Both the position numbers and the translations under genes were made by a program. The notes beneath the pieces are model-generated. The model saw only the letters and a program-made list of their open reading frames with translations. It made no database searches and was not told where the DNA came from. Shown one piece after another: positions 39,836 through 63,070 of a DNA stretch of 64,000 nucleotides. The DNA is from Eledone cirrhosa. Its lineage: Eukaryota. The stretch is from assembly GCA_964016885.1 (NCBI GenBank), contig OZ024741.1, positions 380,184,001 through 380,248,000 of the forward strand, given 5' to 3'. The first letter of the stretch is position 1, and the number at the start of each line of letters is the position of its first letter.

Positions 39836-41010
<1,175 letters not shown>

Positions 41011-42407: not shown

Positions 42408-42715
42408 TCCTGTGTCAGTGTTGAACAAAAAGGTGACGTGGGTGCCTAAATACTGTACGGCTTAATTCGGGCTGTGTGTTTGTTTACAAACAAACAAACC
42501 GTGCATTATAATACATGTTCGGTAAACAGATACGTGCATATATATGTGTGTGCATGTATGTATATACATACTGCTGTACGTCTGTATACATATATGTATG
42601 TACGTATAGATACATACTTACATTAAGTGCCGTACTAAGAGTGAGAAATGAAATTTTGTTTCATTCTATTCCAAATATATATATATATTTATATATATAT
42701 ATATATATACATATA

Positions 42716-42798
<83 letters not shown>

Positions 42799-42806
<8 letters not shown>

Positions 42807-43924
42807 ATACTTTGGGAGGGTCATGTTGCCAATAAGAAACACACACACCAGCTGCTTTCACTTCAATTTATTATATATTAATAAATTTATAAATTTATAA
42901 ATTTCTGGTTGGTAGGTTGGTTCCACAACCAGATAGTTGTTTATATATAGTCATAGTTCTTTCGTCACACACTCTGTGACCTCTTCAGTGACTGGGGATT
43001 CCTTTCTTTGTTTCTGTGCCTCTCCTTTGTTCTGTCCTACGCCATTTTGTTTCTGTGTGTGTGTTGTGTGCTCAGTCTGCGCATGCGCCACATCCGGGTG
43101 TCTCTGTGTGTTTATGTTCATTTATTTATTTGTTTATTTACATGTTACTGGTTGGTTGTTTGTTCTATGTGTGTATGTGTTTTCATTTTGTCCTTAATTG
43201 TAAGTTGTGATGTTGCTATTCCACTCATATTTTCTATTTAATTTTGGTTGTAATTCTTTTATGTTTATTGCCTCTGTAATTTGTCTAAACATTGCGTCTT
43301 TTCTGTGTGTAGATTTCTATTTTTTTTTCTATGTTCTCTAATTTACGCTTGTGTTCTATCTTAGCATGTTGGTAGAGTACAGATGATTCTTTATTATCTT
43401 GACGGTCTCGCCAGTGTTCATTTATCCGTTCCCCTACACTACGAGCTGTCTCACCTATGTACATTATATTTTTGTCTCTACATTGTCCTTCAGTACATCT
43501 TATGCTATACACTACATTTCTAGTTTTACAGTTAATATGGGGGCTTATTTTACAGGTTATACATTTCTTACCTATACATGAGGGTCTTTGAAAAGGGTAT
43601 GTCTTGCTAATAAGTGTTTTTACGGAGGTACCTGGTCTTTCTACTATCTTAATATTGAGTTTATGTTTATTTGGGCCCCTTCTAAATTTGTAAGCTAATT
43701 CACCTCTAGGGGTTGTATTGATGAACATTACACTCTGGTATTTATTGCTATCATACCATGAGTTTATTCTATTAGCCTTGTTCCTAGTTCTTTCTATTCT
43801 ATTCCAAAATTTGCTCCTATACAAGGGGCAGGTCCCATTTATGTCATTATTTACCATTTTTTCCCATTTAGTTCTGGCTCCTCTATACACTCTGATTTTA
43901 TCTCTCTGATTGTAGCCAGAGAAC
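42799..43924 (-). mobile_element. Inverted copy of the 3' part of the adjacent Naiad-like PLE
   Basis: Reverse complement of 44643-45768; ORF 43285-43890 encodes the Cys-rich linker and GIY-YIG (VVYSIRC..YIGET); HHR at 42949-42993. Confidence 0.95.
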
Positions 43925-45822
43925 CTACCATTACCTCAATGGCCAAGAAAACCGACACAGATAGATGGAACGGGTGGACCAGAGCCATACGGACACCCGA
44001 AAACCACGATGAACTGAAGAAAATGATTGCACATGCGGTAGGGGCCAGCATAAAACTAACCCTTAAGGAACATATGTTCAAATTTAATGGAAAAACATAT
44101 GCCCAAGAGGAAGGAGCAGCCATTGGTGTTAGCATTGCAGGAGACATAGCTAACTTATTCATGGTATGGTGGAACAGTAGACTTAAACTTAAACTTAAAG
44201 AACAATTAGAAGACCCCTTAACCCTCATAATGTACTCCCGCTACGTAGATGATATAAACATCGTAGTTAAGACACCCCCACTAGAGAACAGTCAGGAACT
44301 AGAGAAAAACACCATGGAAAGCATCCAGCAAATAGCAAACTCCATCCACCAGAGCATTAGAGTTACTATAGACTACCCAAGTAAACACCCCAACCATCGA
44401 TTACCTGTACTAGACACAGAGCTCTGGTTAGATACCATTAACAACAAAAAACAAATCCTCCATTCCCATTATGCCAAACCCATGACTTCCAAACATCTGA
44501 TCCGCCGAAACTCGGCCATTTCGGACCATACCGGAATCAACATACTGATTGCGAATTTGGTACGGGTGATGAGAAATGTGTCCCGCATGTGCAACCCCGA
44601 AAAACTAGAGAGACACATACAACACTTCATCCACCGTATGCAGTTCTCTGGCTACAATCAGAGAGATAAAATCAGAGTGTATAGAGGAGCCAGAACCAAA
44701 TGGGAAAAAATGGTAAATAATGACATAAATGGGACCTGCCCCTTGTATAGGAGCAAATTTTGGAATAGAATAGAAAGAACTAGGAACAAGGCTAATAGAA
44801 TAAACTCATGGTATGATAGCAATAAATACCGGAGTGTAATGTTCATCAATACAACCCCTAGAGGTGAATTAGCTTACAAATTTAGAAGGGCCCTAAATAA
44901 ACATAAACTCAATATTAAGATAGTAGAAAGACCAGGTACCTCCGTAAAAAACACTTATTAGCAAGACATACCCTTTTCAAAGACCCTCATGTATAGATAA
45001 GAAATGTATAACCTGTAAAATAAGCCCCCATATTAACTGTAAAACTAGAAATGTAGTGTATAGCATAAGATGAACTGAAGGACAATGTAGAGACAAAAAT
45101 ATAATGTACATAGGTGAGACAGCTCGTAGTGTATGGGAACGGATAAATGAACACTGGCGAAACCTTCAAGATAATAAAGAATCATCTGTACTCTACCAAC
45201 ATGCTAAGATAGAACACAAGGGTAAATTAGAGAACATAGAAATAAACATAGAATCTACACACAGAAAAGACGCAACGTTTAGACAAATTACAGAGGCAAT
45301 AAACATAAAAGAATTACAACCAAAATTAAATAGAAAATATGAGTGGAACAGCAACATCACAACTTACAATTAAGGACAAAATGAAAACACACACACACAT
45401 AGAACAAACAACCAACCAGTAACATGTAAATAAACAAATAAATAAATGAACATAAACACACAGAGACACCCGGATGTGGCGCATGCGCAGACTGAGCACA
45501 CAACACACACACAGAAACAAAATGGCGTAGGACAGAACAAAGGAGAGGCACAGAAACAAAGAAAGGAATCCCCAGTCACTGAAGAGGTCACAGAGTGTGT
45601 GACGAAAGAACTATGACTATATATAAACAACTATCTGGTTGTGGAACCAACCAACAAACCAGAAATTTATAAATTTATAAATTTATAAATATATAATAAA
45701 TTGAAGTGAAAGCATCTGGTGCGTGTATTTCTTATTGGCAACATGACCCTCCCAAAGTATAACAATATCGGTTTCAACACACGATTTCAGATAAAGAATC
45801 TTGCTAAACAAATTCAGAAACG

Positions 45823-45824
<2 letters not shown>
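43925..45824 (+). mobile_element. 5'-truncated Penelope-like element, Naiad-like (RT and GIY-YIG)
   Basis: QEEGAAIGVSIAGDIANLFM, YSRYVDDI, DYPSKH..RLPVLD, YAKPMTS, YIGETARS..RINEH, RQITEA..PKLNRKYEW; +1 frameshift at the A-run ~44950; ends in (TA)n; clade assignment from motif recall. Confidence 0.92.
45574..45618 (+). ncRNA. Minimal type I hammerhead ribozyme in the PLE 3' UTR
   Basis: AGTCA-CTGAAGA-G-GTCACA GAGTG TGTGAC-GAAA-GAAC-TA-TGACT. Confidence 0.85.
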
Positions 45825-45910
<86 letters not shown>

Positions 45911-45923
45911 ATATATATATATA

Positions 45924-48184
45924 TATCATCATCATCATCATCAACTTCGTTTAACCTCCATTTTCCACGTTAGCATTGGCTAGACGGGAGTTGTCCTAAT
46001 TTGAGTCAAGGTTGGTCGGGTGACCGTGTCTCGCTCATATAGGACTATCTGGCAGGTTTTCTACTGCTGGATGCCCTTCCTAACACCAACCACATTTACA
46101 GTGTGGAACTGGGAATTTTTTACCGTGTTACCTACACGGCCACATTACAGCGTGGACAGTGAGTTTTTTGTCGTGACACCTACACAATCTCGATCTCATT
46201 ATCTCATTTATTTTGCCATTCTGAGTTCAAATCCCGCCGAGGTTAACTTTGCCTTTCATCCTTACGGGGTCGATAAAATAAAGTACCAGTAATGTACTGG
46301 GTAATTGCTGGCCTTGTGCCAAAAGTAGAAACAATTATCTCATTTATTTGGACTGGATGTTGTGGTACCAACTTTACAGAGAGAGGGTGGTGTTTGTGGG
46401 AGTGGGGGGATAAGGTAGGGATAGTGGATTGTGGTGTATATTTGGTTAAGAGGTGCCTACTGACTGTAGGTTTCGCTTTGTACATAGGCAAGGCGGATTT
46501 TCTGTATTACTGCGTAGCGCCAAAGATCTCGGTCCAGTGACATTGTCTTAGAGAGGTGCAAGTGTGTAAGGTGGGAATTTATTATATCGCCCCAGGTTTT
46601 TCTGGGTCTACCTACTCCGTAACTACCATCAATTGTGATCGCCATGCACTTTTTTATACAGCTGTCGTCTTTCATGCGCATCGCGTGGCCATACCAACGC
46701 AGTCTTCACTCAAGTAAACAGCATCTGATCCCTCTTATTCCTAATTTCTCACTTAGTTCATTTATGCTTTGCCGTTCACGTATATTACTATTACACATCC
46801 AACGGAGCATGCATGCTTCGTTCCTTTCCAGTCTGCGCAGGTCCTCTGCACGTAATCCCCATGTCTCACTGGCATGTAGCATTGAAGTTCGTATATAAGC
46901 ATCATACAATCTCCCTTTCATTTTTAGAGAGAAACCTTTTGTGGCCAACAGCGATATAAGCTCTCTGAACTGTTTCCATCCCGTTCTGACTCTGGCTACT
47001 GTACTTTCAGAACACCCTCCTCCACTGTTGATTTCGTCACTCAGGTAACGTAAAGTGTCTACCATTTCTATGGAACCATCTGGGCAATAGAAGGAGCTAG
47101 TATTTTGTGGACACTTGCTACTTATTGCACCTGAGCTTCGGCCACATATAAAGTCTACGTACTTAGATAGTTTACCTGTGATCCCACTACATCTTTTATG
47201 TACCCATACTTTGCATTTGGGACATAAAATGGAATTCCTACCTACTCCTTTCCTACACACTGAGCATGGCCAATTCTATGAGGGCATCTGTGCCCTGTTT
47301 TCCTTTCTACAAGCTAGAACTGTAGTATTAGAAAAGTTAACTTTAAGGGCTTTTGATTCTAGGCCGTGCTTCCATGTTTCGAATTTCTTCTCTAGTTCAG
47401 TCATTGATTCAGCTATGAGCTTTAGATCATCTGCATATAGGAGTTCCCATGGACAGCCGGTCTTGAACTCTTCAGTTATAGCCTGAAGGGCAATAATAAA
47501 TAGGAGGGGACTAAGGACAGAGCCTTGATGAACGCCAACTTTTACACTGAGTTCTTCACAATATTCATTGTTATTTCTAACCTTACTGACTATTTCATTA
47601 TACATAGTCTGTATAGCTCTCAAAAGCCATATATCTACACCTAGTTTTCTAAGAGCCCACCAGATAATGGAGCGGGGGACTCTGTCAAAGCTTTCTCCAG
47701 GTCTACAAAAGCTAAGTAGAGGAGTTTACTTTTAGCTAGGTACTTCTCTTGTAGTTGTCGTACAAGGAAAAGAGCGTCTGTGGTACTTTTACCTGACACA
47801 AACCCAAACCGCATTTCATCTAGATCAATTCGCTCTCTGATTAGTTGCGCTATAACTCTTTCTGTGACCTTCATGACATGGTCAACTAACTTAATGCCTC
47901 TATAGTGTCCCCTATCTAAAGAATCCCCTTTACCCTTGTAGCAGTTAATGATGTTGCTTCTCTGTCTTTCGGTATAACCCCATTCTGTATTACTTGGTTA
48001 ACTATACGGGTGACCGTAGTGTGTCCCACCATACCAGATGCCTTCAACATCTCAGCAACTATCTCCGAAGGCCCAGCTGCCTTGCCTGTCTTCATATCTT
48101 TGATTGGCATACTTATTATACTACCTTTGACTTGCACCGCTGGTCCTTCTATTGGATCGATTTGGGGCAGACTATCTTTTTGCA
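45924..48184 (-). mobile_element. 5'-truncated RTE-clade LINE with a PHD-like insert
   Basis: MKTGKAAGPS, FGFVSGKSTTDALF, AFVDLEKA, GVHQGSVLSPLLF, LLYADDL, CSVC..CPKC..VHKRC..ICGR, (GAT)n tail. Confidence 0.95.
46214..46333 (+). mobile_element. 5'-truncated SINE inserted in the RTE 3' UTR with a 16-bp TSD
   Basis: Matches 23799-23915; TSD ATTATCTCATTTATTT at 46198-46213 and 46334-46349. Confidence 0.85.
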
Positions 48185-48450
48185 TATATATATATGCAAA
48201 AGGATAGTCTGCCCCAAATCGATCCAATAGAAGGACCAGCGGTGCAAGTTAAAGGTAGTATAATAAGTATGCCAATCAAAGATATGAAGACAGGCAAGGC
48301 AGCTGGGCCTTCGGAGATAGTTGCTGAGATGTTGAAGGCATCTGGTATGGTGGGACACACTACGGTCACCCGTATAGTTAACCAAGTGATACAGAATGGG
48401 GTCATACCGAAAGACTGGGAAGCATCATCATTAACTGCTACAAGGGTAAA
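47929..48450. repeat. Fold-back duplication of the RTE 5' end around a 12-bp TA loop
   Basis: 47929-48184 is inverted at 48195-48450. Confidence 0.95.
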
Positions 48451-48600
48451 TTTGCTCCGAACGAACTACACGTGTCTGAAGGAACCTGCATCCGTAGAAT
48501 CAGCCAGATCAATACAGGGACCATGTCTCGAGCTACCTGGCGAAACAATTGTAACACGCAATAAATTGAGTCCAGATGCATCACTGATTTTTTGTTTTTT
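48449..48600 (+). mobile_element. PLE-like 3' tail with a variant hammerhead (second copy at 52530-52690, minus strand)
   Basis: CGTGT-CTGAAG-[~20 nt]-A-GCCAG..CTGGC-GAAA-CAATTG-TA-ACACG, followed by (TA)n. Confidence 0.55.
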
Positions 48601-48631
48601 AATACTATATATATATCTATATATATCTATC

Positions 48632-48670
<39 letters not shown>

Positions 48671-48825
48671 GGATATATATATATCTATATATATATAGAG
48701 AGAGAAAGAAAGAGAGAGAGAGAGAAAATTGAGGTTGGTAATGGCACATGGAATATATAAGAGACAGAATACTTTTTTGTGAAAAAACATAATTTTATAA
48801 GGTAAGGAAATAATAAAGGGTATAA

Positions 48826-48872
48826 AAATGACCGGTTTCGATGGGTCTGCAAAAGCCATCTTTTCAAATGTT
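48826..48872 (-). ncRNA. Degenerate hammerhead motif
   Basis: TTGAAAA-GATGG..CCATC-GAAA-CCGG-TC; core mutated. Confidence 0.45.
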
Positions 48873-49184
48873 GATTAATATTAAGAAAAATTAATAATAC
48901 GAAGAGTTAAAATTTGAGATTTGAAAATTCAAGTATAAAATTCATTGTGGGATTTCATAGTAGTTTTCATCTAGGTAGCAACAACAAGTTGACTGCTGTG
49001 TCCCTTTCTGGTAGTGAATGAGAAATTATTTGGGGTGTGGGTTATTTTATAAAGGTCAGATTTAGCAATGGCCAACTGGCCAGCTGCTGGTCAGTGAGGG
49101 GGTGGAAGCAATATACATACATATATCTTCCTGTGGTGGGTAGGAGAGTGGAGCGTGATAGAAAGGGATTTAGTGCACTTACAC

Positions 49185-49236
49185 CTATATATACACACAT
49201 ACCTTCATCCACACATACATACATATACATATACAT

Positions 49237-49297
<61 letters not shown>

Positions 49298-49364
49298 CAC
49301 ACATACATACACACACACATACATATACATACACATATACACACACACACACATATATACACAT

Positions 49365-49409
<45 letters not shown>

Positions 49410-49448
49410 TATATATATACACACATACATCCAGATACACACATACAT

Positions 49449-49479
<31 letters not shown>

Positions 49480-49810
49480 CAAATACACATATATATATAT
49501 ATATATATACACACACACCCACACATACATACACACACACACATATATATACATATACACATGCAAACATACACACACACACACATATATATACACATAC
49601 ACACACATATATACACACACACACACACATATATATATATACACATACGCATACATCCAGATACACACATACACACACACACACACACGCACACACAATA
49701 CATACATCAACATGCACACACATACACACACACACACACACACATATACACATACATACACCCACACACAGAGAAATGGCCTCCAAATATATATATATAT
49801 ACATACACAT
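49185..49810. repeat. Compound (CA)n/(TA)n microsatellite
   Basis: Visible low-complexity tract. Confidence 0.95.
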
Positions 49811-50229
49811 ATTTTTTCCATAATATAAGAAGTTGGGACAGTAAAATTAAAATACAAGTCATTCTGATCACATTGAGTTCTTCATGTAGATTGGGCCCCG
49901 CAACCGACAGTGGTGAATTCTGTGTGCGCATATATATATAGATATATGTGTGTGCACGTGCAGGGTTTAACATGGATGTGTTGGTCACACAAAGGCATGG
50001 TCTGTCAACGAATAAACCTGATTCTACAGAATTGGTCTCTGGTCTTTAATAGTAGTGATTCCGTGCGTATGTGTGTTTATATTTTATGACAATTCTATTG
50101 GGGTGATAACCCGTTTATATATATATGTAGGAGGTGAGTTTTATTCTAGTACAATAAAGCAATGCAGATATCGGATAAGAAGCACTATACAGTTTGTAGG
50201 ACAGGAGTATACATAATATATAAGAACAA

Positions 50230-52428
50230 AAGATGGTTAAAAGAGTTCCAGGTATTTTATTATGCGCATTTCAAAAACAAATATCATCATGCAATAATAT
50301 TTGCGTTTTCATCAGATAAAACAGGAAGACATGGTATGAAGGTTAAAAAACACTTGTGGATAGTGCAGTTTTAAATAAACATATGAAAAGTAGTTTTAGA
50401 TTGATGTGTGATATTGGGAAAAATATTTTATTTTGAGGGGGGGGGGATAAAAAAGAGGAGGAGATGAGAGTAAAAAGTGGAGAGGGAGGAGTATAATGAG
50501 GGAGGATGAGATAGGAGGAGAGATGGGTGATAGAGAGAGAGAGATAGCTTTTATAACTGAGAAAAATATATTGTTTTACATAGAGAGGTTGAAAACCGTT
50601 GGAAGATAATGTATGAATTAAAAGAATTTGAAAATTGACGAAGAGAAAAAAAGAGAATAAAATAATGTAAAGTTAAGGTTTGTATATTGAGGGGTTTAAT
50701 AATATGTGCGATGAAAAGAAAATGTTAATATGTATTAAGAATAATATTTAAGGGTTTAATAACATGTGCGATGGAAAAGAAAAAGTTAATATGTATTAAG
50801 AATGATATTTAAGGGTTTAATAATATGTGCGATGGAAAGAAAATGTTGATATGTATTATTAAAAAGAACAACAGGTAATTTAAGTAAGGATATATTGTGA
50901 GATGAGCATGAATGAGTTAGATTCTAAATTGATAATGATTTGGATATTAGCTGTATACTTTGTGGAATGTTTTGTGGAATTTATGCAAGCAGATAGAAAA
51001 CAAGTCAGTGCGTCTATTTATTATAGAATCTAAATTAGATATAATGGTAAATTTTTCATTTAGACAGAGATTGCAAATTTTGGATAGAGAACTGTTCAAA
51101 CTTAAAAGAACCAACTTAAAAGAACAAACTTAAAAGAACCAACACGGCTCTCTCAGAACTCATATGGTCCTTGAAAGACAAAAATATTAAATATAACATC
51201 TTTTTGAAGAAGGTTTCTTCTGCGTCTTCATACTTGAACAGTTCTCTATCCAAAATTTGCAATCTCTGTCTAAATGAAAAATTTACTATTATATCTAATT
51301 TAGATGCTATAATAAATAGACGCACTGACTTGTTTTCTATCTGCTTGCATAAATTCCACAAAACATTCCACAAAGTATACAGCTAATATCCAAATCTTTA
51401 TCAATTTAGAATCTTTTTCTCAAAGGCACATATATATATATACACTTCTTTAAAAATATACCCATCTTTCTACCTTATTTCAAAGGTTATTATACATTCT
51501 ATAATACTTGTTACTCATTCTATATCGCTCCTATTTATCACTTCCCTTTCTTCTCTTTTTCTTTTAACCCCTAATCTGTACCTTTTCTCACTGTTGCCTA
51601 ACATAGAATCAATTATTACATAATACAATACATTCTTACTCTATATCACCTTGTAAAAATCCTTCGTAAACAAACATTTTTTTGACGTTAGATTATTCAT
51701 CCTCAATTCATTATTTTTTTCTGCCTTTCGTCTAACTCATTCATGCTGATCTCACAATATATCCTTACTTAAATTACCTGTTGTTCTTTTTAATAATACA
51801 TATCAACATTTTCTTTCCATCGCACATATTATTAAACCCTTAAATATCATTCTTAATACATATTAACTTTTTCTTTTCCATCGCACATGTTATTAAACCC
51901 TTAAATATTATTCTTAATACATATTAACATTTTCTTTTCATCGCACATATTATTAAACCCCTCAATATACAAACCTTAACTTTACATTATTTTTTCTCTT
52001 TTTTCTCTTCGTCAATTTTCAAATTCTTTTAATTCGTACATTATCTTCCAACGGTTTTCAACCTCTCTATGTAAAACAATATATTTTTCTAAGTTATAAA
52101 AGCTATCTCTCTCTCTCTATCACCCATCTCTACTCCAATCTCATCCTTCCTCATTATACACCTCCCTCTCCACTTTTTACTCTCATCTCCTCTTTTTCAT
52201 CCTTTCCACCCCCACCCACCCCTCAAAATAAAATATTTTTCCCAATATCACACATCAATCTAAAACTACTTTTCATATGTTTATTTAAAACTGGACTATC
52301 CACAAGTGTTTTTTAACCTTCATATCATGTCTTCCTGTTTTATCTGATGAAAACGCAAATATTATTGCATGATGATATTTGTTTTTGAAATGCGCATACT
52401 AAAATACATGGAACTCTCTTAACCATCT
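50230..52428 (+). mobile_element. Nematis-like PLE 3' end (51100-52428) preceded by its own inverted copy (50230-51099)
   Basis: TALSELIWSLKDKNIKY..ICNLCLNEKFTII..C.H; arms reverse-complementary, left arm lacks ~51413-51730; three ~60-bp tandem repeats per arm; CTGATGA..GAAA-TGCG core at ~52344-52396 and ~50262-50315. Confidence 0.88.
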
Positions 52429-52449
52429 TATATATATATATAGAGAGAG

Positions 52450-52510
<61 letters not shown>

Positions 52511-52997
52511 TATATATAGATATATATATAGTAAAAAAAACGAAAAATTAGTGATGCATCTGGACTCAATTTATTGTGTGTTACAATTGTTTCGCCAGGT
52601 AGCTCGAGACATGGTCCCTGTATGGATCTGGCTGATTCTACGGCTGCAGGTTGCTTCAGACACGTATAGTTCGTTCGGAGCAAATTTTATCACTGGGGTG
52701 TTATCATCAAAAAACACCTTCAAAAAACCTCTTCCACTCTTGTCATGCTATTGGCTGTTGTTACTCCACGTCATCTTAAGTTCTGGTCACTATTTACTGC
52801 TACACGGGTCATCAGCCATTTTCTGTCCGACACACTTCAATGGAGTCATGCTGGGTTCGGTATCTCACACGTCTGTTCACACTCCAGAGTATGTACCCAC
52901 ACATACAAATACACACACACATATACACACACAGGCAGACACTAACACATGCGTGCATACACATATGTACGCATACATGCGCAGACACCCCCACCCC

Positions 52998-53051
<54 letters not shown>

Positions 53052-53119
53052 CCGTCACTTCCACAGACCCAGATACACCCACTTCTAGAAACCGAGCGCC
53101 ACAAGCCTATTATCGCCTG

Positions 53120-53363
53120 CTTAAGTCGCGCCATAGATCCGGTCCGACAGGCACGACACACACAAACATACACATATACATACACACATACGCGCGCACA
53201 CATACCTACGCACAACCTTATATACACATATATATACACATAAACACACACACATATATACATACACACATACAAATATATATATATATACACACATGCG
53301 CACACATACATACAAAATAACCATACGCACACAAAATTACATACACATATACATACACACACT

Positions 53364-53433
<70 letters not shown>

Positions 53434-55616
53434 AGAACCGTACATGCATACGCACACCCACACATATACATACATATATACATGCAGACATATATACATC
53501 TACATATACATACGCACACGGACGGCCACATGCAGACACCTGCACATATGCATATTTGCTTACACACACGTTTTCACATATACATATATAAACAAAACGG
53601 TAAATTAAAAATACATTATATAATAAAAAACACAATATACCATAAAATAACGGTAAAAAAACTTAACATATCTAGGGCGGTTAAAATTCCCGAGATCCAT
53701 GTCTGTTATTAGGGCATCGACATACGTTGTCATTGGTCTTCCTCTTCCAGTGTGTCCATGTAGCGGCTACCACAAGAGCACTGAGTTCAATGTCAACTCT
53801 GGATGTCAGTGAGCATGTCCAGCTAACCTCAGTCTCCTCTCTGTCACTTTTGAGCTGACCTCTGGGAGGCTGCCATACAGCCCTGTGTTTTTCATCCTCA
53901 GTGCATACTGATTAATGTTCAGAGCCATCCTCAGCATTCTCGTGTAGCACCCATCCACCATCTGAGTGAGTTTCTTGATCAGTGTCCAAGTCTCAGACCC
54001 GTACTGCAGCACAGACTCCACTACAGCAATGAAGAGGCGGATTTTCAGGTCTTTACGAAGGTCGGATTACCACACCTATCTCAAGCTGTGGCACGCTGCC
54101 CAGGCTTTGGTCTTCCTCTCAACCACATCATCCTCCGTATTCCCAATTTTTGCTCCCAAATACAGGAATCCCTCAGCCAATTTTAGCGGCTTCCCGCCTA
54201 CATTAGTGATCCCTTCTGGCCACTCAACATTCCCTACCAGATATTTTGTTTTAGTCTCATTCATTCTCACCCCCACACTCATCGACACAGCCTCAACCTC
54301 CCGCATCAAATTCTCTGCCTCCTTCACTGTATTTGTCCCCAAAACTATGTCGTCGGCAAATTCAGCATCTGATACCTTTTTCGCATTAACTCTCCTGCTC
54401 TGAGCCGGTGCTACAGTAAAGGCAGATACCTGGTGTTTCTCCAGTGCAAGGCGCATACAATAGTCCACTACGATGATAAAAAGGTAGGGAGCCAACGTAT
54501 CTCCCTGGAGCACTCCAGCCAGTATCTCAAAGAACTTTGTCATCGCATCAGGTGTAATGACTTGGGCTTTGGTGTTGGTATAGAGCAGTGATATCAGGTC
54601 CACTATCTTCTTGGGGATTCCATAAGCCTGTAAGATCATCATCAGGCAGTGACGGTCCACAGAATCAAATGCCTTCCTAAAGTCAATGAAAACCATGACA
54701 TAAAATATCAATATAGTATACATTATAATATATATATATGTATATATACAAGCACACACATTCATACATACATATACGGATATATACAATGGATATATGA
54801 TAAAATAATACAAATAATAGTAATAAAATGCATATATAATCCATATATAATCATCCGTACACATTCCTGCGAGATGTACATAAACATATACATGTATACA
54901 CAAATACACATACACATATATAGAGGCCCACATATGCATACACCCGCACCCACATATATATATATATATATATATACACATACACACACATACTTATACG
55001 TAGCTATACGTACATACAAACATATATATATATATACACACTCTGCCACATACGTACATACATGTACATGCATGCTCACCCACACGCTCATAAGCTCATG
55101 CATATACGTACACATGCCCATATCCACACCCCCATACACACCCACGTATATATATATATATATATATCTACATACACACACACATACATATACCTACGCA
55201 CGGGTCTACACATAAAAACACCCATATATAAACACAATAGGATAATAAAATAAAATAAATGAATTTACAATATTTTAGAATACATTATGTTGTTATTTTA
55301 CCGTTATGTTATGGTATATTGTGTTTTTTTTTTTAATTATATAACGCAATTTTAAATTACGGTTTTGTTTATATATGCATATGTGGAAACATGTGTGTGT
55401 AAGCCAATATGCATATGTGCAGGTGTCTGCATGTGGCAGTCTGTGTGCGTATGTATATGTAGATGTATATATGTCTGCATGTATATATGTATATATATGT
55501 GTGGGTGTGCGTATGCATGTACGTTTTTTTTGTATATATATATATGTGTGTGTGTATGTATGTGCGTATGTAATTTAGTGTACGTATGTGAATTTTGTAT
55601 GTATGTGTGTGCATAT

Positions 55617-59422: not shown

Positions 59423-62400
59423 TACAAACTTTATTCAATCAACACAACAAATTAATTCGATTGTTCAGAGCTGCCCTTGATAAATGCCAAGTGATGACTA
59501 CACAATTGTAGTTAGAGCAGACAAAACACCTGTTAGCCAACATCAAAGACCAATGCACCAACAATTGATGAAGTGGCGATCTTTATTGTAGGTGAAGAAT
59601 TTAACTCGCGCGATATAATTCTTCACCGCAGAAATGGTGATGTTCAGCGAGTCTCAGAAACGCATCGGTCATACGATGGTTTGCAATATCCGATTTTATT
59701 TTGGCAAGGAGAAGATGGATATCATTTCAACATCAAACTGAGAAATCCACAAACAGATGAGGAAACGAATAAGAAAGTCAGTGCCATGAATTATTATTCA
59801 TATAGATTAATGATTCGTGAAAACGGTGAAAATCATATTTTGAAATGTCGACAATTGTTCCATCAATACATTGTCGATATGTATGCAAAAATCGAAACGG
59901 AACGACTCCTGTACATTCGATTGAATCAAACCAAGCTACGTTCAGAAGAGTACATTCATTTACGTGATGCCATTGTTAATGATGGCAATATGAATCCTAA
60001 TGAATTGGGGAAAATTATCATGCTGCCGGCTACATTCACAGGTAGGCCACGGCACATGCGGGAATACGCACAAGATGCAATGACATATGTTCGCGCATAT
60101 GGCCGTCCAGATTTTTTTTATTACATTCACATGCAATCCTACGTGGGATGAAATTAAAGAACTTTTGTTACCTGGTCAATCGTCTTCGGATCGTCATGAT
60201 ATTACAGCCCATGTGTTCAAACAAAAATTGAAATCTTTAACGGATTTAATTGTCAAACATCATGTTTTGGGAGAGACACGCTGTTGGATGTTTTCCATTG
60301 AATGGCAAAAAAGAGGATTTCCACATGCACACCTTTTTATTTGGTTAATTGAAAAAGTCACAGCAGAAATACCAGATGTCGACGTTGATCCAAACTTATT
60401 TGAAGTCGTCACTAAAAACATGATTCATGGTCCATGTGGCTTACTCAACAACAATTCACCATGCATGTCTGATGAGAAATGCACGAAACAATACCCAAGA
60501 GACTTAGTTGCCGAGACTATCACTGGCAATGACGGATATCCACTCTATCGTCGACGAGCAACTGAAGATGGCGGCAAATCCATCACTTTAAAAGTACGAA
60601 ACAATTATGTTGAAGTCGATAATCGTTGGGTTGTACCATATTCACCGTTACTCTCAAAGACGTTCAAAGCACACATCAATGTCGAGTATTGCAATTCGGT
60701 GAAAGCGATCAAGTACATTTGCAAATATATCAACAAAGGAAGCGATATGGCAGTTTTTGGAGTGTGCAATGCAAATTCATCTATCGATGAAATCGACCAA
60801 TACCAACTGGGACGCTACATTAGTAGTAATGAAGCAGTATGGAGCATTTTATCATTTCCAATCCATTATCGACATCCAACAGTTGTTCATTTGGCGGTGC
60901 ACCTTGAAAATGAACAGGGCGTATACTTCACAACTGAAAATATACGTGCAAGGGCATTGACACCACCGCCAACAACGTTAACTGCGTTTTTCTCATTGTG
61001 CAGTGAAGATGTGTTTGCAAAGACACTACTTTATTCTGAAGTGCCAACATATTACACATGGAATACATCAACTAAAAAGTTTAAACGTCGCAAACAGGGT
61101 AAAGTAGTTGAAGGACAGCCCAATTTATATTCGACCGACGCGTTAGGCCGTTTGTACACTGTTCACCCAAATAATGCAGAATGCTTTTACTTGCGATTAT
61201 TGTTAATCAACGTACGTGGACCGACATCATTCCAAGAATTGAGAACAGTAAACGGTCAAGTATGTGCCACTTATCGTGAAGCTTGCCAAAAATTAAATCT
61301 TCTTGAAAATGATGGACATTGGGACACTTCACTCGCTGATGCATCGAATACTGCTCGACCACAGCAAATACGCACGTTATTCGCAATAATATTGACAACA
61401 TGCTTCCCATCAAATCCAAAATATCTTTGGGAAAAATACAAAGACTACATGAGTGAAGACATGCTACATCGTTTGCGTGCAACAAATCAAAATCTGAATA
61501 TTCAATTCACACCAATCGTGTATAATGAAGCATTGGTTTCGATTGAGGTCATATGTTTAGCAATCGCTAACAAAACACTGGTACAATTGGGAATGCCTGC
61601 GCCGAATCGATCTGTAAACGGCATTTTCGATCGTCATTTGCAACGAGAAACAAACTTTGATGTCGCCGAATTGGGTACATTTGTTCAAACGAATCTTCTG
61701 AAATTGGTACCAGAACAACGCATAGTATATGACAAAATTATGCAGGCAATTACAAATCAAAGCGGCGGATTGTATTTTATAGATGCGCCCGGTGGTACAG
61801 GTAAAACTTTTCTCATTTCACTTATTTTGGCAACTATACGATCACAAAATAATATTGTACAGGCAATCGCATCATCTGGAATTGCGGCAACTCTTTTGGA
61901 TGGTGGCCGAACTGCACATCCAGCACTGAAATTGCCATTGAATATGCAAATCACTGAGACACCAACATGCGATAACACCAAAAATTCTGGTATAGGTAAA
62001 GTACTCCAATCATGTCAAATCATTATATGGGACGAATGTACTATGGCGCACAAAAAATCATTGGAAGCGCTTAATAATACACTAAAAGATTTGAAAGGAA
62101 ATGAACAGCTCTTCGGTGGCACACTCATTTTATTGTCTGGTGATTTTCGACACACTCTACCAGTTATACCGCGATCAACACTCGCTGATGAGCTTAATGC
62201 ATGTCTCAAATCATCAGTTTTATGGCGACACGTACAGAAATTAACTTTAAAAACCAATATGCGTGTACAACTACAAAATGATGCATCCGCTGAACGTTTC
62301 ACAAAACAATTGCTGGATATTGGGAATGGGAAAATGGTAATCGATGAATCCACAAAATGTATGACATTGCCAACAAACTTCTGTAGAATCACGGCAACCA

Positions 62401-63070
62401 GAGACGAACTGATTCACAAAGTTTTCCCAAATATCGCGCAGCATTAAAAAATCATCAGTGGCTCAATGCACGTGCTATATTAGCAGTCAAAAACAACGAT
62501 GTCAATGCCATTAATTTCAGCATTCAAAACAAAATACCAGGCGAAGCGACAACGTATAAGTCCACCGATACTGTAATGAATCAAGACAAAATTATCAATT
62601 ATCCAACTGAATTCTTGAATTCACTTGATTTGCCAGGCGTGCCACCGTACATTTTAACATTGAAAATTGGCGTGCCTATCATCCTTCTCCGAAACATCAA
62701 TCCACCACAACTTTGCAACGGTACCAGGCTTTCAGTGAAAGAGATGATGAACAATATCATCGAAGCTACAATTTTAAATGGAAAATTAAAAGGAGAAGAT
62801 GTACTGTTGTCACGCATCGCAATGATTCCGACAGATACGCCATTCGAATTCAAACGTTTGCAGTTTCCGGTGCGACTCGCCTTTGCAATGACTATCAACA
62901 AAGCACAAGGACAATCGCTACAAGTGTGTGAACTAAATTTAGAAAATCCATGCTACTCACATGGACAGCTGTATGTGGCTTGCTCACACGTCGGTAAACC
63001 TTCTGATTTATTCGTGTACGCACCAGAAGGAAAAACAAAAAACATTGTGTATCCAAAAGCACTTCAGTAA
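59423..63070 (+). pseudogene. Helitron Rep (HUH) and Pif1-family helicase, frameshifted
   Basis: FITFTCNP, IEWQKRGFPHAHL, KYICKYINKG, DAPGGTGKT, WDECTM, GDFRHTLPV, FAMTINKAQGQS, HGQLYVACS; breaks at ~60115 and ~62447. Confidence 0.95.

Follow-up and report, generated by a model that had tools for sequence, protein, structure and literature searches.

A LINE-PLE chimera at a TA tract in the Eledone cirrhosa genome is likely a DNA repair scar

Background

In the genome of Eledone cirrhosa, a truncated LINE is followed by a short TA tract, an inverted copy of its own 5' end, the end of a Penelope-like element (PLE) and a further TA tract. The locus lies in a stretch of 64,000 nucleotides (assembly GCA_964016885.1, contig OZ024741.1, positions 380,184,001 to 380,248,000), here called the window, to which all coordinates refer. 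It raises the question of whether such a structure was made by retrotransposition, with new cDNA capturing the adjacent DNA, or by repair of sequences that were already in place.

The LINE and its inverted duplicate

The left part of the locus is an older, resident, 5'-truncated LINE on the minus strand (45927..48183, with the truncated 5' end at 48183), which was 3.4% different from the majority of its closest copies. We take it to be an RTE-type element, and an intact relative with RVT_1 was found at locus L131. The terminal 255 bp of this LINE (left arm, 47929..48183, minus strand) are original LINE sequence, followed by a self-complementary (TA)6 (48184..48195) and then by the right arm (48196..48450, plus strand), in which the left arm is duplicated in inverted form. 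The two 255-bp arms had 7 mismatches and no gaps, confirming the inverted copy of about 255 bp around (TA)6 noted in a preliminary description of the locus.

A 4-bp deletion and four substitutions were common to both arms and absent in all 29 of the best other LINE copies compared, and the arms were closer to each other than to those copies. A 27-mer spanning one of the shared changes matched the genome twice, once in each arm. As judged from these private variants, the right arm arose locally by inverted duplication of the left flank, as had been suggested. The shared variants also indicate that the LINE was already old by the time one part of it was locally duplicated. Each arm carried three to four further substitutions of its own, making a fold-back of the assembly unlikely.

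Two other origins of the arms were considered. The shared private variants and the arm-only 27-mer ruled out that the right arm is a second, independent LINE. Insertion of the LINE into a resident PLE, with a fold-back of its own cDNA, was rejected because the five arm-shared changes predate the duplication and the other end of the LINE has no upstream PLE part. In L1 twin priming, the inverted segment comes from the same RNA and has no overlap with the rest. The present locus is similar in having an inversion 5' of a truncated retroelement, but here flanking DNA is duplicated; the right arm duplicates the flank locally, so the earlier view that this is no twin-priming inversion stands.

TA-centred palindromes with arms of at least 25 bp were detected at 22 of the 2,228 tracts scanned in the fetched loci (about 1.1 Mb), several of them being low-complexity false matches. 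Such palindromes are thus rare, indicating that the arm structure is not due to chance.

The PLE tail and its source

The right arm joins a PLE tail of about 150 bp (copy 1, 48448..48607, plus strand), which ends in TACTA and runs into a TA tract. The tail had been described as PLE-like and 5'-truncated, and a tandem unit at L132 identifies it as the 3' terminus of a PLE pseudo-LTR. At the junction the LINE reads GGGTAAA/GGGG, the neighbouring PLE GATAAAATTTGC and the joined sequence GGGTAAATTTGC; the AAA microhomology reported earlier (48448..48450, plus strand) was present in all three and joins the two duplicated segments. A 29-mer across the junction occurred once in the 3.0-Gb genome, even with two mismatches allowed, and therefore no LINE-tail chimera of this kind was found at unlinked loci.

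A second copy of the same PLE family (copy 2, 52535..53670, minus strand) is located 4 kb to the right on the opposite strand, in a tail-to-tail arrangement with copy 1. It differs by about 3% from the family majority and resumes past an inserted LINE to about 55290. The inserted LINE (53671-54690, RVT_1) has an apparent TATGT target duplication. A TA/GATA tract (52432..52535) lies at the 3' end of copy 2.

Compared with the family majority, copy 1 has three substitutions and a 3-nt deletion after 48538. Among 92 other aligned family copies the deletion was seen in one only, the neighbouring copy 2, which also has one of the tail's substitutions. The 24-mer containing the deletion occurred exactly twice in 3.0 Gb, in copy 1 and in copy 2. 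The interruptions of the TA tract beyond the element end are also common to both copies. In the TA-type tract beside copy 1 (48606..48727), the first ~30 nt show the interruption pattern found beside copy 2, whereas the GA end belongs to the next element. This pattern fitted 3 of 261 copy ends (the two copies here and another that matched more loosely), and 7 of the 6,950 tracts in the fetched loci. The shared deletion and the shared flanking tract indicate that copy 1 is an inverted duplicate of the copy 2 end together with its flank. Judged by these markers, the tail is a local inverted duplicate for which copy 2 would have been the template, and not an independent insertion.

The preliminary description had proposed that cDNA primed in the TA tract, which here would come from a dispersed PLE, jumped at AAA to the upstream flank and was extended along it as far as the TA site. 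Such a jump would yield the same left-arm sequence and a joint with microhomology. However, it leaves the match of tail and tract to the neighbour alone unexplained, and an L1-type insertion of new cDNA from a dispersed source is not what was found here, since the tail matches the adjacent copy only. A jump would also have needed duplex invasion on 3 nt and closure of a hairpin at the centre, while a TA snap-back would give a zero-spacer centre directly, according to the model in the available part of bioRxiv 10.1101/2024.12.14.628481. Furthermore, its template would have been the bottom strand of the left flank, which standard break processing would remove by 5' resection. With the tail and its tract being a duplicate of copy 2, and with the 24-mer in only two places, the proposal of a fresh cDNA jump is largely refuted and we regard it as highly improbable.

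Adjacent inverted copies can undergo conversion. A PLE might therefore have inserted independently beside copy 2 with a fold-back of the flank, and gene conversion across the palindrome might then have made the two copies alike. The family does target TA tracts, and flank fold-backs recur at PLE 5' ends (L007, L160 and L304). This course requires three rare events and predicts that copy 1 and copy 2 are closer to each other than the LINE arms are, whereas 8 differences in 173 positions (4.6%) were found between the copies and 7 in 255 (2.7%) between the arms. In addition, the layout is repeated at another locus, L130, and we consider insertion followed by conversion improbable.

Insertions between the two PLE copies

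The 3.8-kb spacer between copy 1 and copy 2 consists of two other PLE insertions and TA-type tracts, and nothing else. The first is a very young, 5'-truncated PLE of another family (48728..50117, minus strand), which is 0.3-0.5% off its family majority, has matches of 99-100% identity among dispersed copies and ends at its truncation in TA; for the tail and the LINE, the best matches elsewhere were 95%. By its low divergence this element clearly arrived after the event, as a later insertion into the tract, and it explains a contig match without mismatches at 48734-48899. Several copies of its family (L256-L278) have long open RT and GIY-YIG frames, and the family was likely active recently. 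The second insertion (50127..52431) is a head-to-head PLE of a third family, located between TA tracts. It is 2.2-2.8% off the majority, an age overlapping that of the event (about 1.4-2.3% per lineage).

When the two insertions were removed, the order became LINE, TA, inverted LINE, AAA, inverted PLE end, TA and PLE. Without them the locus thus consists of two back-to-back TA-centred palindromes. A search for a pre-insertion allele in four contig runs, in which repeats swamped the output, gave no listed record bridging the site. The TA tract masks any target-site duplication at the locus.

Probable fold-back repair at both ends of a break

The 400-bp insert is probably the scar of one double-strand break with fold-back synthesis at both ends. 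It is composed of 255 bp of the LINE from the left and about 150 bp of PLE copy 2 plus TA tract from the right, both inverted. The divergences of the two duplications agree with each other (Fisher p 0.43), in keeping with a single event. The insert is an inverted copy of DNA adjacent to the presumed break, with TA hairpin centres and with AAA, within the range of 0-5 nt, at the second junction; the right-hand TA centre emerges after the two spacer insertions are set aside.

In the proposed course of events, a single TA tract would at first have lain between the 5' end of the LINE and the 3' end of copy 2. A break would have occurred within this tract, made by the GIY-YIG nuclease of a PLE or arising at a TA hairpin. 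Each resected 3' end, with self-complementary TA at its tip, would then snap back and extend on its own strand, by 255 nt on the left, where (TA)6 would have been the hairpin loop and the left arm the template, and by about 150-180 nt on the right. The new strands would unwind and anneal through AAA/TTT, followed by fill-in. Later PLEs would have entered the right-hand tract, separating the arms of that palindrome by 3.8 kb. No RNA or cDNA would be required, and a hammerhead-like motif in the tail would be a passenger.

The same product could also be obtained by replication template switching (MMBIR/FoSTeS-like), in which one nascent strand copied first the left and then the right flank, inverted, at the TA tract. 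Local inverted templates and short microhomology fit such a process, but the strand would have to switch three times in order, coming back to the same tract each time, and we give this course only a very slim chance.

Several features of the locus and its relatives argue against two-sided repair. If the 50127-52431 element was already present, the right end would have needed a 2.3-kb loop. The copied lengths, 255 and 150 nt, exceed typical polymerase theta inserts of about 30 nt and equal or exceed the yeast maximum of about 150 given in the available part of PMC11724301. Loci L007, L160, L109 and L304 have no mirrored partner in the fetched DNA, which points to one-sided and possibly cDNA-coupled cases as well. 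A repair scar, and not a new retrotransposition trick, is nevertheless the likely nature of the locus.

The source family and its hammerhead-like motif

At L132, two pLTR ends of the source family are 4,390 bp apart, with ORF fragments for RT as well as a C-terminal GIY-YIG between them (motifs recognized by eye; the Pfam GIY-YIG match was weak, with E 0.02). A tandem unit with pLTRs in which GIY-YIG lies C-terminal to RT is the arrangement of an EN+ PLE, and the optional 3' tail, inverted truncated copies and TA targets are as in canonical EN+ PLEs. The Cys linker before GIY-YIG presumably places the family in the Nematis or Neptune clade.

The tail contains a predicted hammerhead-like motif (48471..48558, plus strand). 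It was compared with the minimal PLE hammerhead described in the part of PMC4209133 that we used. The motif has a 5-bp helix I (CGUGU/ACACG), GAAA, a palindromic helix III (GAAACAAUUGUA) and a GUA triplet, and helix I had 5 pairs in 76 of 99 scored family-1 copies. The core is non-canonical, being CUGAAGGA and not CUGANGA, and CUGAAGGA was found in 61 copies. A 62-nt branched insert is present, and no helix II closes the core with a G10.1-C11.1 pair. No hammerhead was found in the tail by Rfam, and fold z-scores were -0.3 to 1.3. The hammerhead label given earlier therefore holds for helix I, GAAA, helix III and GUA, but not for the core, helix II or the Rfam search. In the sister family (L151-L249) the core has decayed otherwise (CCGUCGA, CCGACGA), while helix I and the palindromic GAAACAAUUGUA were kept, which suggests a protein-binding or dimerising role, not cleavage.

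An exact 44-mer of the tail had 125 matches in the genome and the sister family 1,579. The copies analysed were fetched from most of the first 100 family-1 places listed and from some 90 places of the sister family on one contig; they comprised 268 distinct copies in about 193 clusters, a count that is approximate since one cluster over-merges about 5 insertions and L098/L099 are duplicates. The 3' end of family copies was found at one of two positions about 85 nt apart, giving a short and a long form, and in nearly all cases it ran into TA. Head-to-head self-inversions were seen in 112 of the 193 clusters. Their 5' ends peaked 103-104 nt from the core. This truncation hotspot was sharp, at CCCCAGTGA (for example 52690-52700, minus strand), and its distance from the core was equal in both sister families. 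The peak suggests that the hotspot is probably an RNA start, and many of the copies may then have arisen as run-off cDNAs about 160 or 250 nt long.

The 5' end of the tail in the window lies 94 nt from the core, about 10 nt short of the hotspot and thus near the probable 5' end of the RNA. This is the main point against two-sided repair, since the same position would be expected with an RNA template that ended there. A read-through transcript of copy 2 could have started near the hotspot, run into its TA tract and been reverse-transcribed at that same tract, with the other end folding back and AAA joining the two. The presence of two 3' ends in the source family fits this course. According to the part of PMC11167929 consulted, a PLE protein has cutting and extending activity on both strands, uses two internal RNA start sites and may be directed to AT-rich DNA in its own pLTR, and in the available part of PMC10191854, L1 insertions with upstream fold-backs of 52-220 bp made up 0.3-0.4% of cases. 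On the other hand, the daughter must land in its parent's own 3' tract within a 3-Gb genome, the mirrored PLE part at L130 passes the hotspot, and element-free one-sided fold-backs are common. We therefore regard templating by RNA in cis as rather unlikely.

Recurrence at other loci

The double palindrome was found again at L130, there with zero spacer, giving two two-sided cases in total. L130 was added by eye. Here 33 bp of flank are folded back around TA and followed, after a short slipped repeat at the junction, by a PLE end whose mirror image lies across (TA)10; the two PLE halves differ at 2 of 157 nt. Both mirrored halves have an uncommon variant, found in 4 copies compared with 64 having the usual letters, and the copied PLE part runs about 40 nt beyond the truncation hotspot of the family.

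A flank fold-back with a truncated PLE, and with no mirrored partner in the fetched DNA, was present at L007, L160 and L304 (the last outside the 268-copy set); L109 was complex. Seven automatic fold-back assignments were checked by hand: L001, L007 and L160 were clean and L109 again complex, and L200, L238 and L246 were dropped as inverted ends of other elements or noise. L300, a candidate distant partner of L109, turned out to be a sister-family copy. These one-sided PLE fold-backs may be cDNA-coupled, as at L1 sites, or may come from resected resident copies. Chance abutment was expected in about 0.06 cases by a rough density estimate, and the probability of three such cases was about 3e-5. 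Flank fold-backs at PLE 5' ends numbered 3-4 in about 194, compared with 4 in about 1,198 for L1 (p 0.02-0.06), a rate not clearly above that of L1.

The kind seen most often in the fetched loci was a one-sided TA-centred fold-back that leads directly back into TA without an intervening element (L060, L178, L217 twice, L186 and 39836-40985 in the window), indicating that fold-back does not need cDNA. The window example is a 1,150-bp palindrome with 457-bp arms (3 mismatches), a TA centre of about 250 bp and a (TA)13 end, and may be a young one-sided fold-back or an assembly fold-back. At L131:3883-5643, tail-to-tail PLE ends with 97.5% identity, a mirrored flank and a complex centre appear to be another DNA-level inverted duplication including a PLE end.

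Other structures were noted in passing. Head-to-head PLE junctions at L002, L017, L021, L023 and L106 often had, by eye, short repeated templated pieces resembling polymerase theta-type joining. A head-to-head element at 42675-45916, whose arms of 1.1 kb differ by 1.9% and whose centre gave a weak RVT_1 match, probably belongs to another PLE family. Frames for a Helitron Rep/PIF1 helicase were located at 59537-62447.

Comparison with known systems

Duplication by fold-back has been described in yeast, in fly and at human L1 sites, and the two-sided, TA-primed, genome-fixed form is a variant of it. In the available parts of the respective reports, local fold-back inverted insertions at yeast breaks were mostly <35 nt, with the maximum already given (PMC11724301), and snap-back SD-MMEJ was described in Drosophila (PMC5728401). 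As in those systems, a resected 3' end would here have folded at inverted microhomology, extended, unwound and joined through 0-5 nt. Unlike the one end that folds in yeast and fly, both ends apparently folded here, over 255 and about 150 nt, primed by (TA)n, and the product is fixed in the germline.

The L1 upstream fold-backs, as presented in the parts seen of PMC10191854 and bioRxiv 10.1101/2024.12.14.628481, likewise have a flank, a small hairpin centre and an inverted flank copy of 52-220 bp, followed by a 5'-truncated retroelement and its 3' repeat, and the latter source proposes fold-back chemistry for L1-induced breaks. The L1 case, however, involves new cDNA, poly(A) and a target duplication, whereas the element part of the present insert is an adjacent resident copied with its flank. 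The source family resembles PLEs in the available parts of PMC8557442 and PMC11167929 in its head-to-head inverted copies, two 3' ends and (TA)n targets. The inverted pseudo-LTR insertions of those PLEs are head-to-head self copies; here, by contrast, copy 1 and copy 2 face each other tail-to-tail, with foreign flank as the 5' partner. No description of two-sided fold-back at TA repeats or beside PLEs appeared in the literature surveyed, although one may exist.

Conclusions

A textbook-looking truncated retroelement with a captured flank can be a repair scar without retrotransposition. This is relevant to insertion counts and to the PLE mechanism as inferred from genomes, and the signature, back-to-back TA-centred palindromes with a microhomology joint, is open to a census. 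More tentatively, abortive cuts by PLE nucleases at (TA)n might be routinely healed by snap-back of one or two ends, with the resulting palindromes giving unusually dense long dsRNA, a possibility that we hold to be speculative. If true, there would be a germline mutational process making perfect palindromes of any adjacent DNA, and this process, jointly with the elements' own head-to-head insertions, would supply long dsRNA. In octopus, an excess of long dsRNA-forming loci and hyper-editing have been reported, according to the part of PMC5625713 available, and TA-centred palindromes may bear on both.
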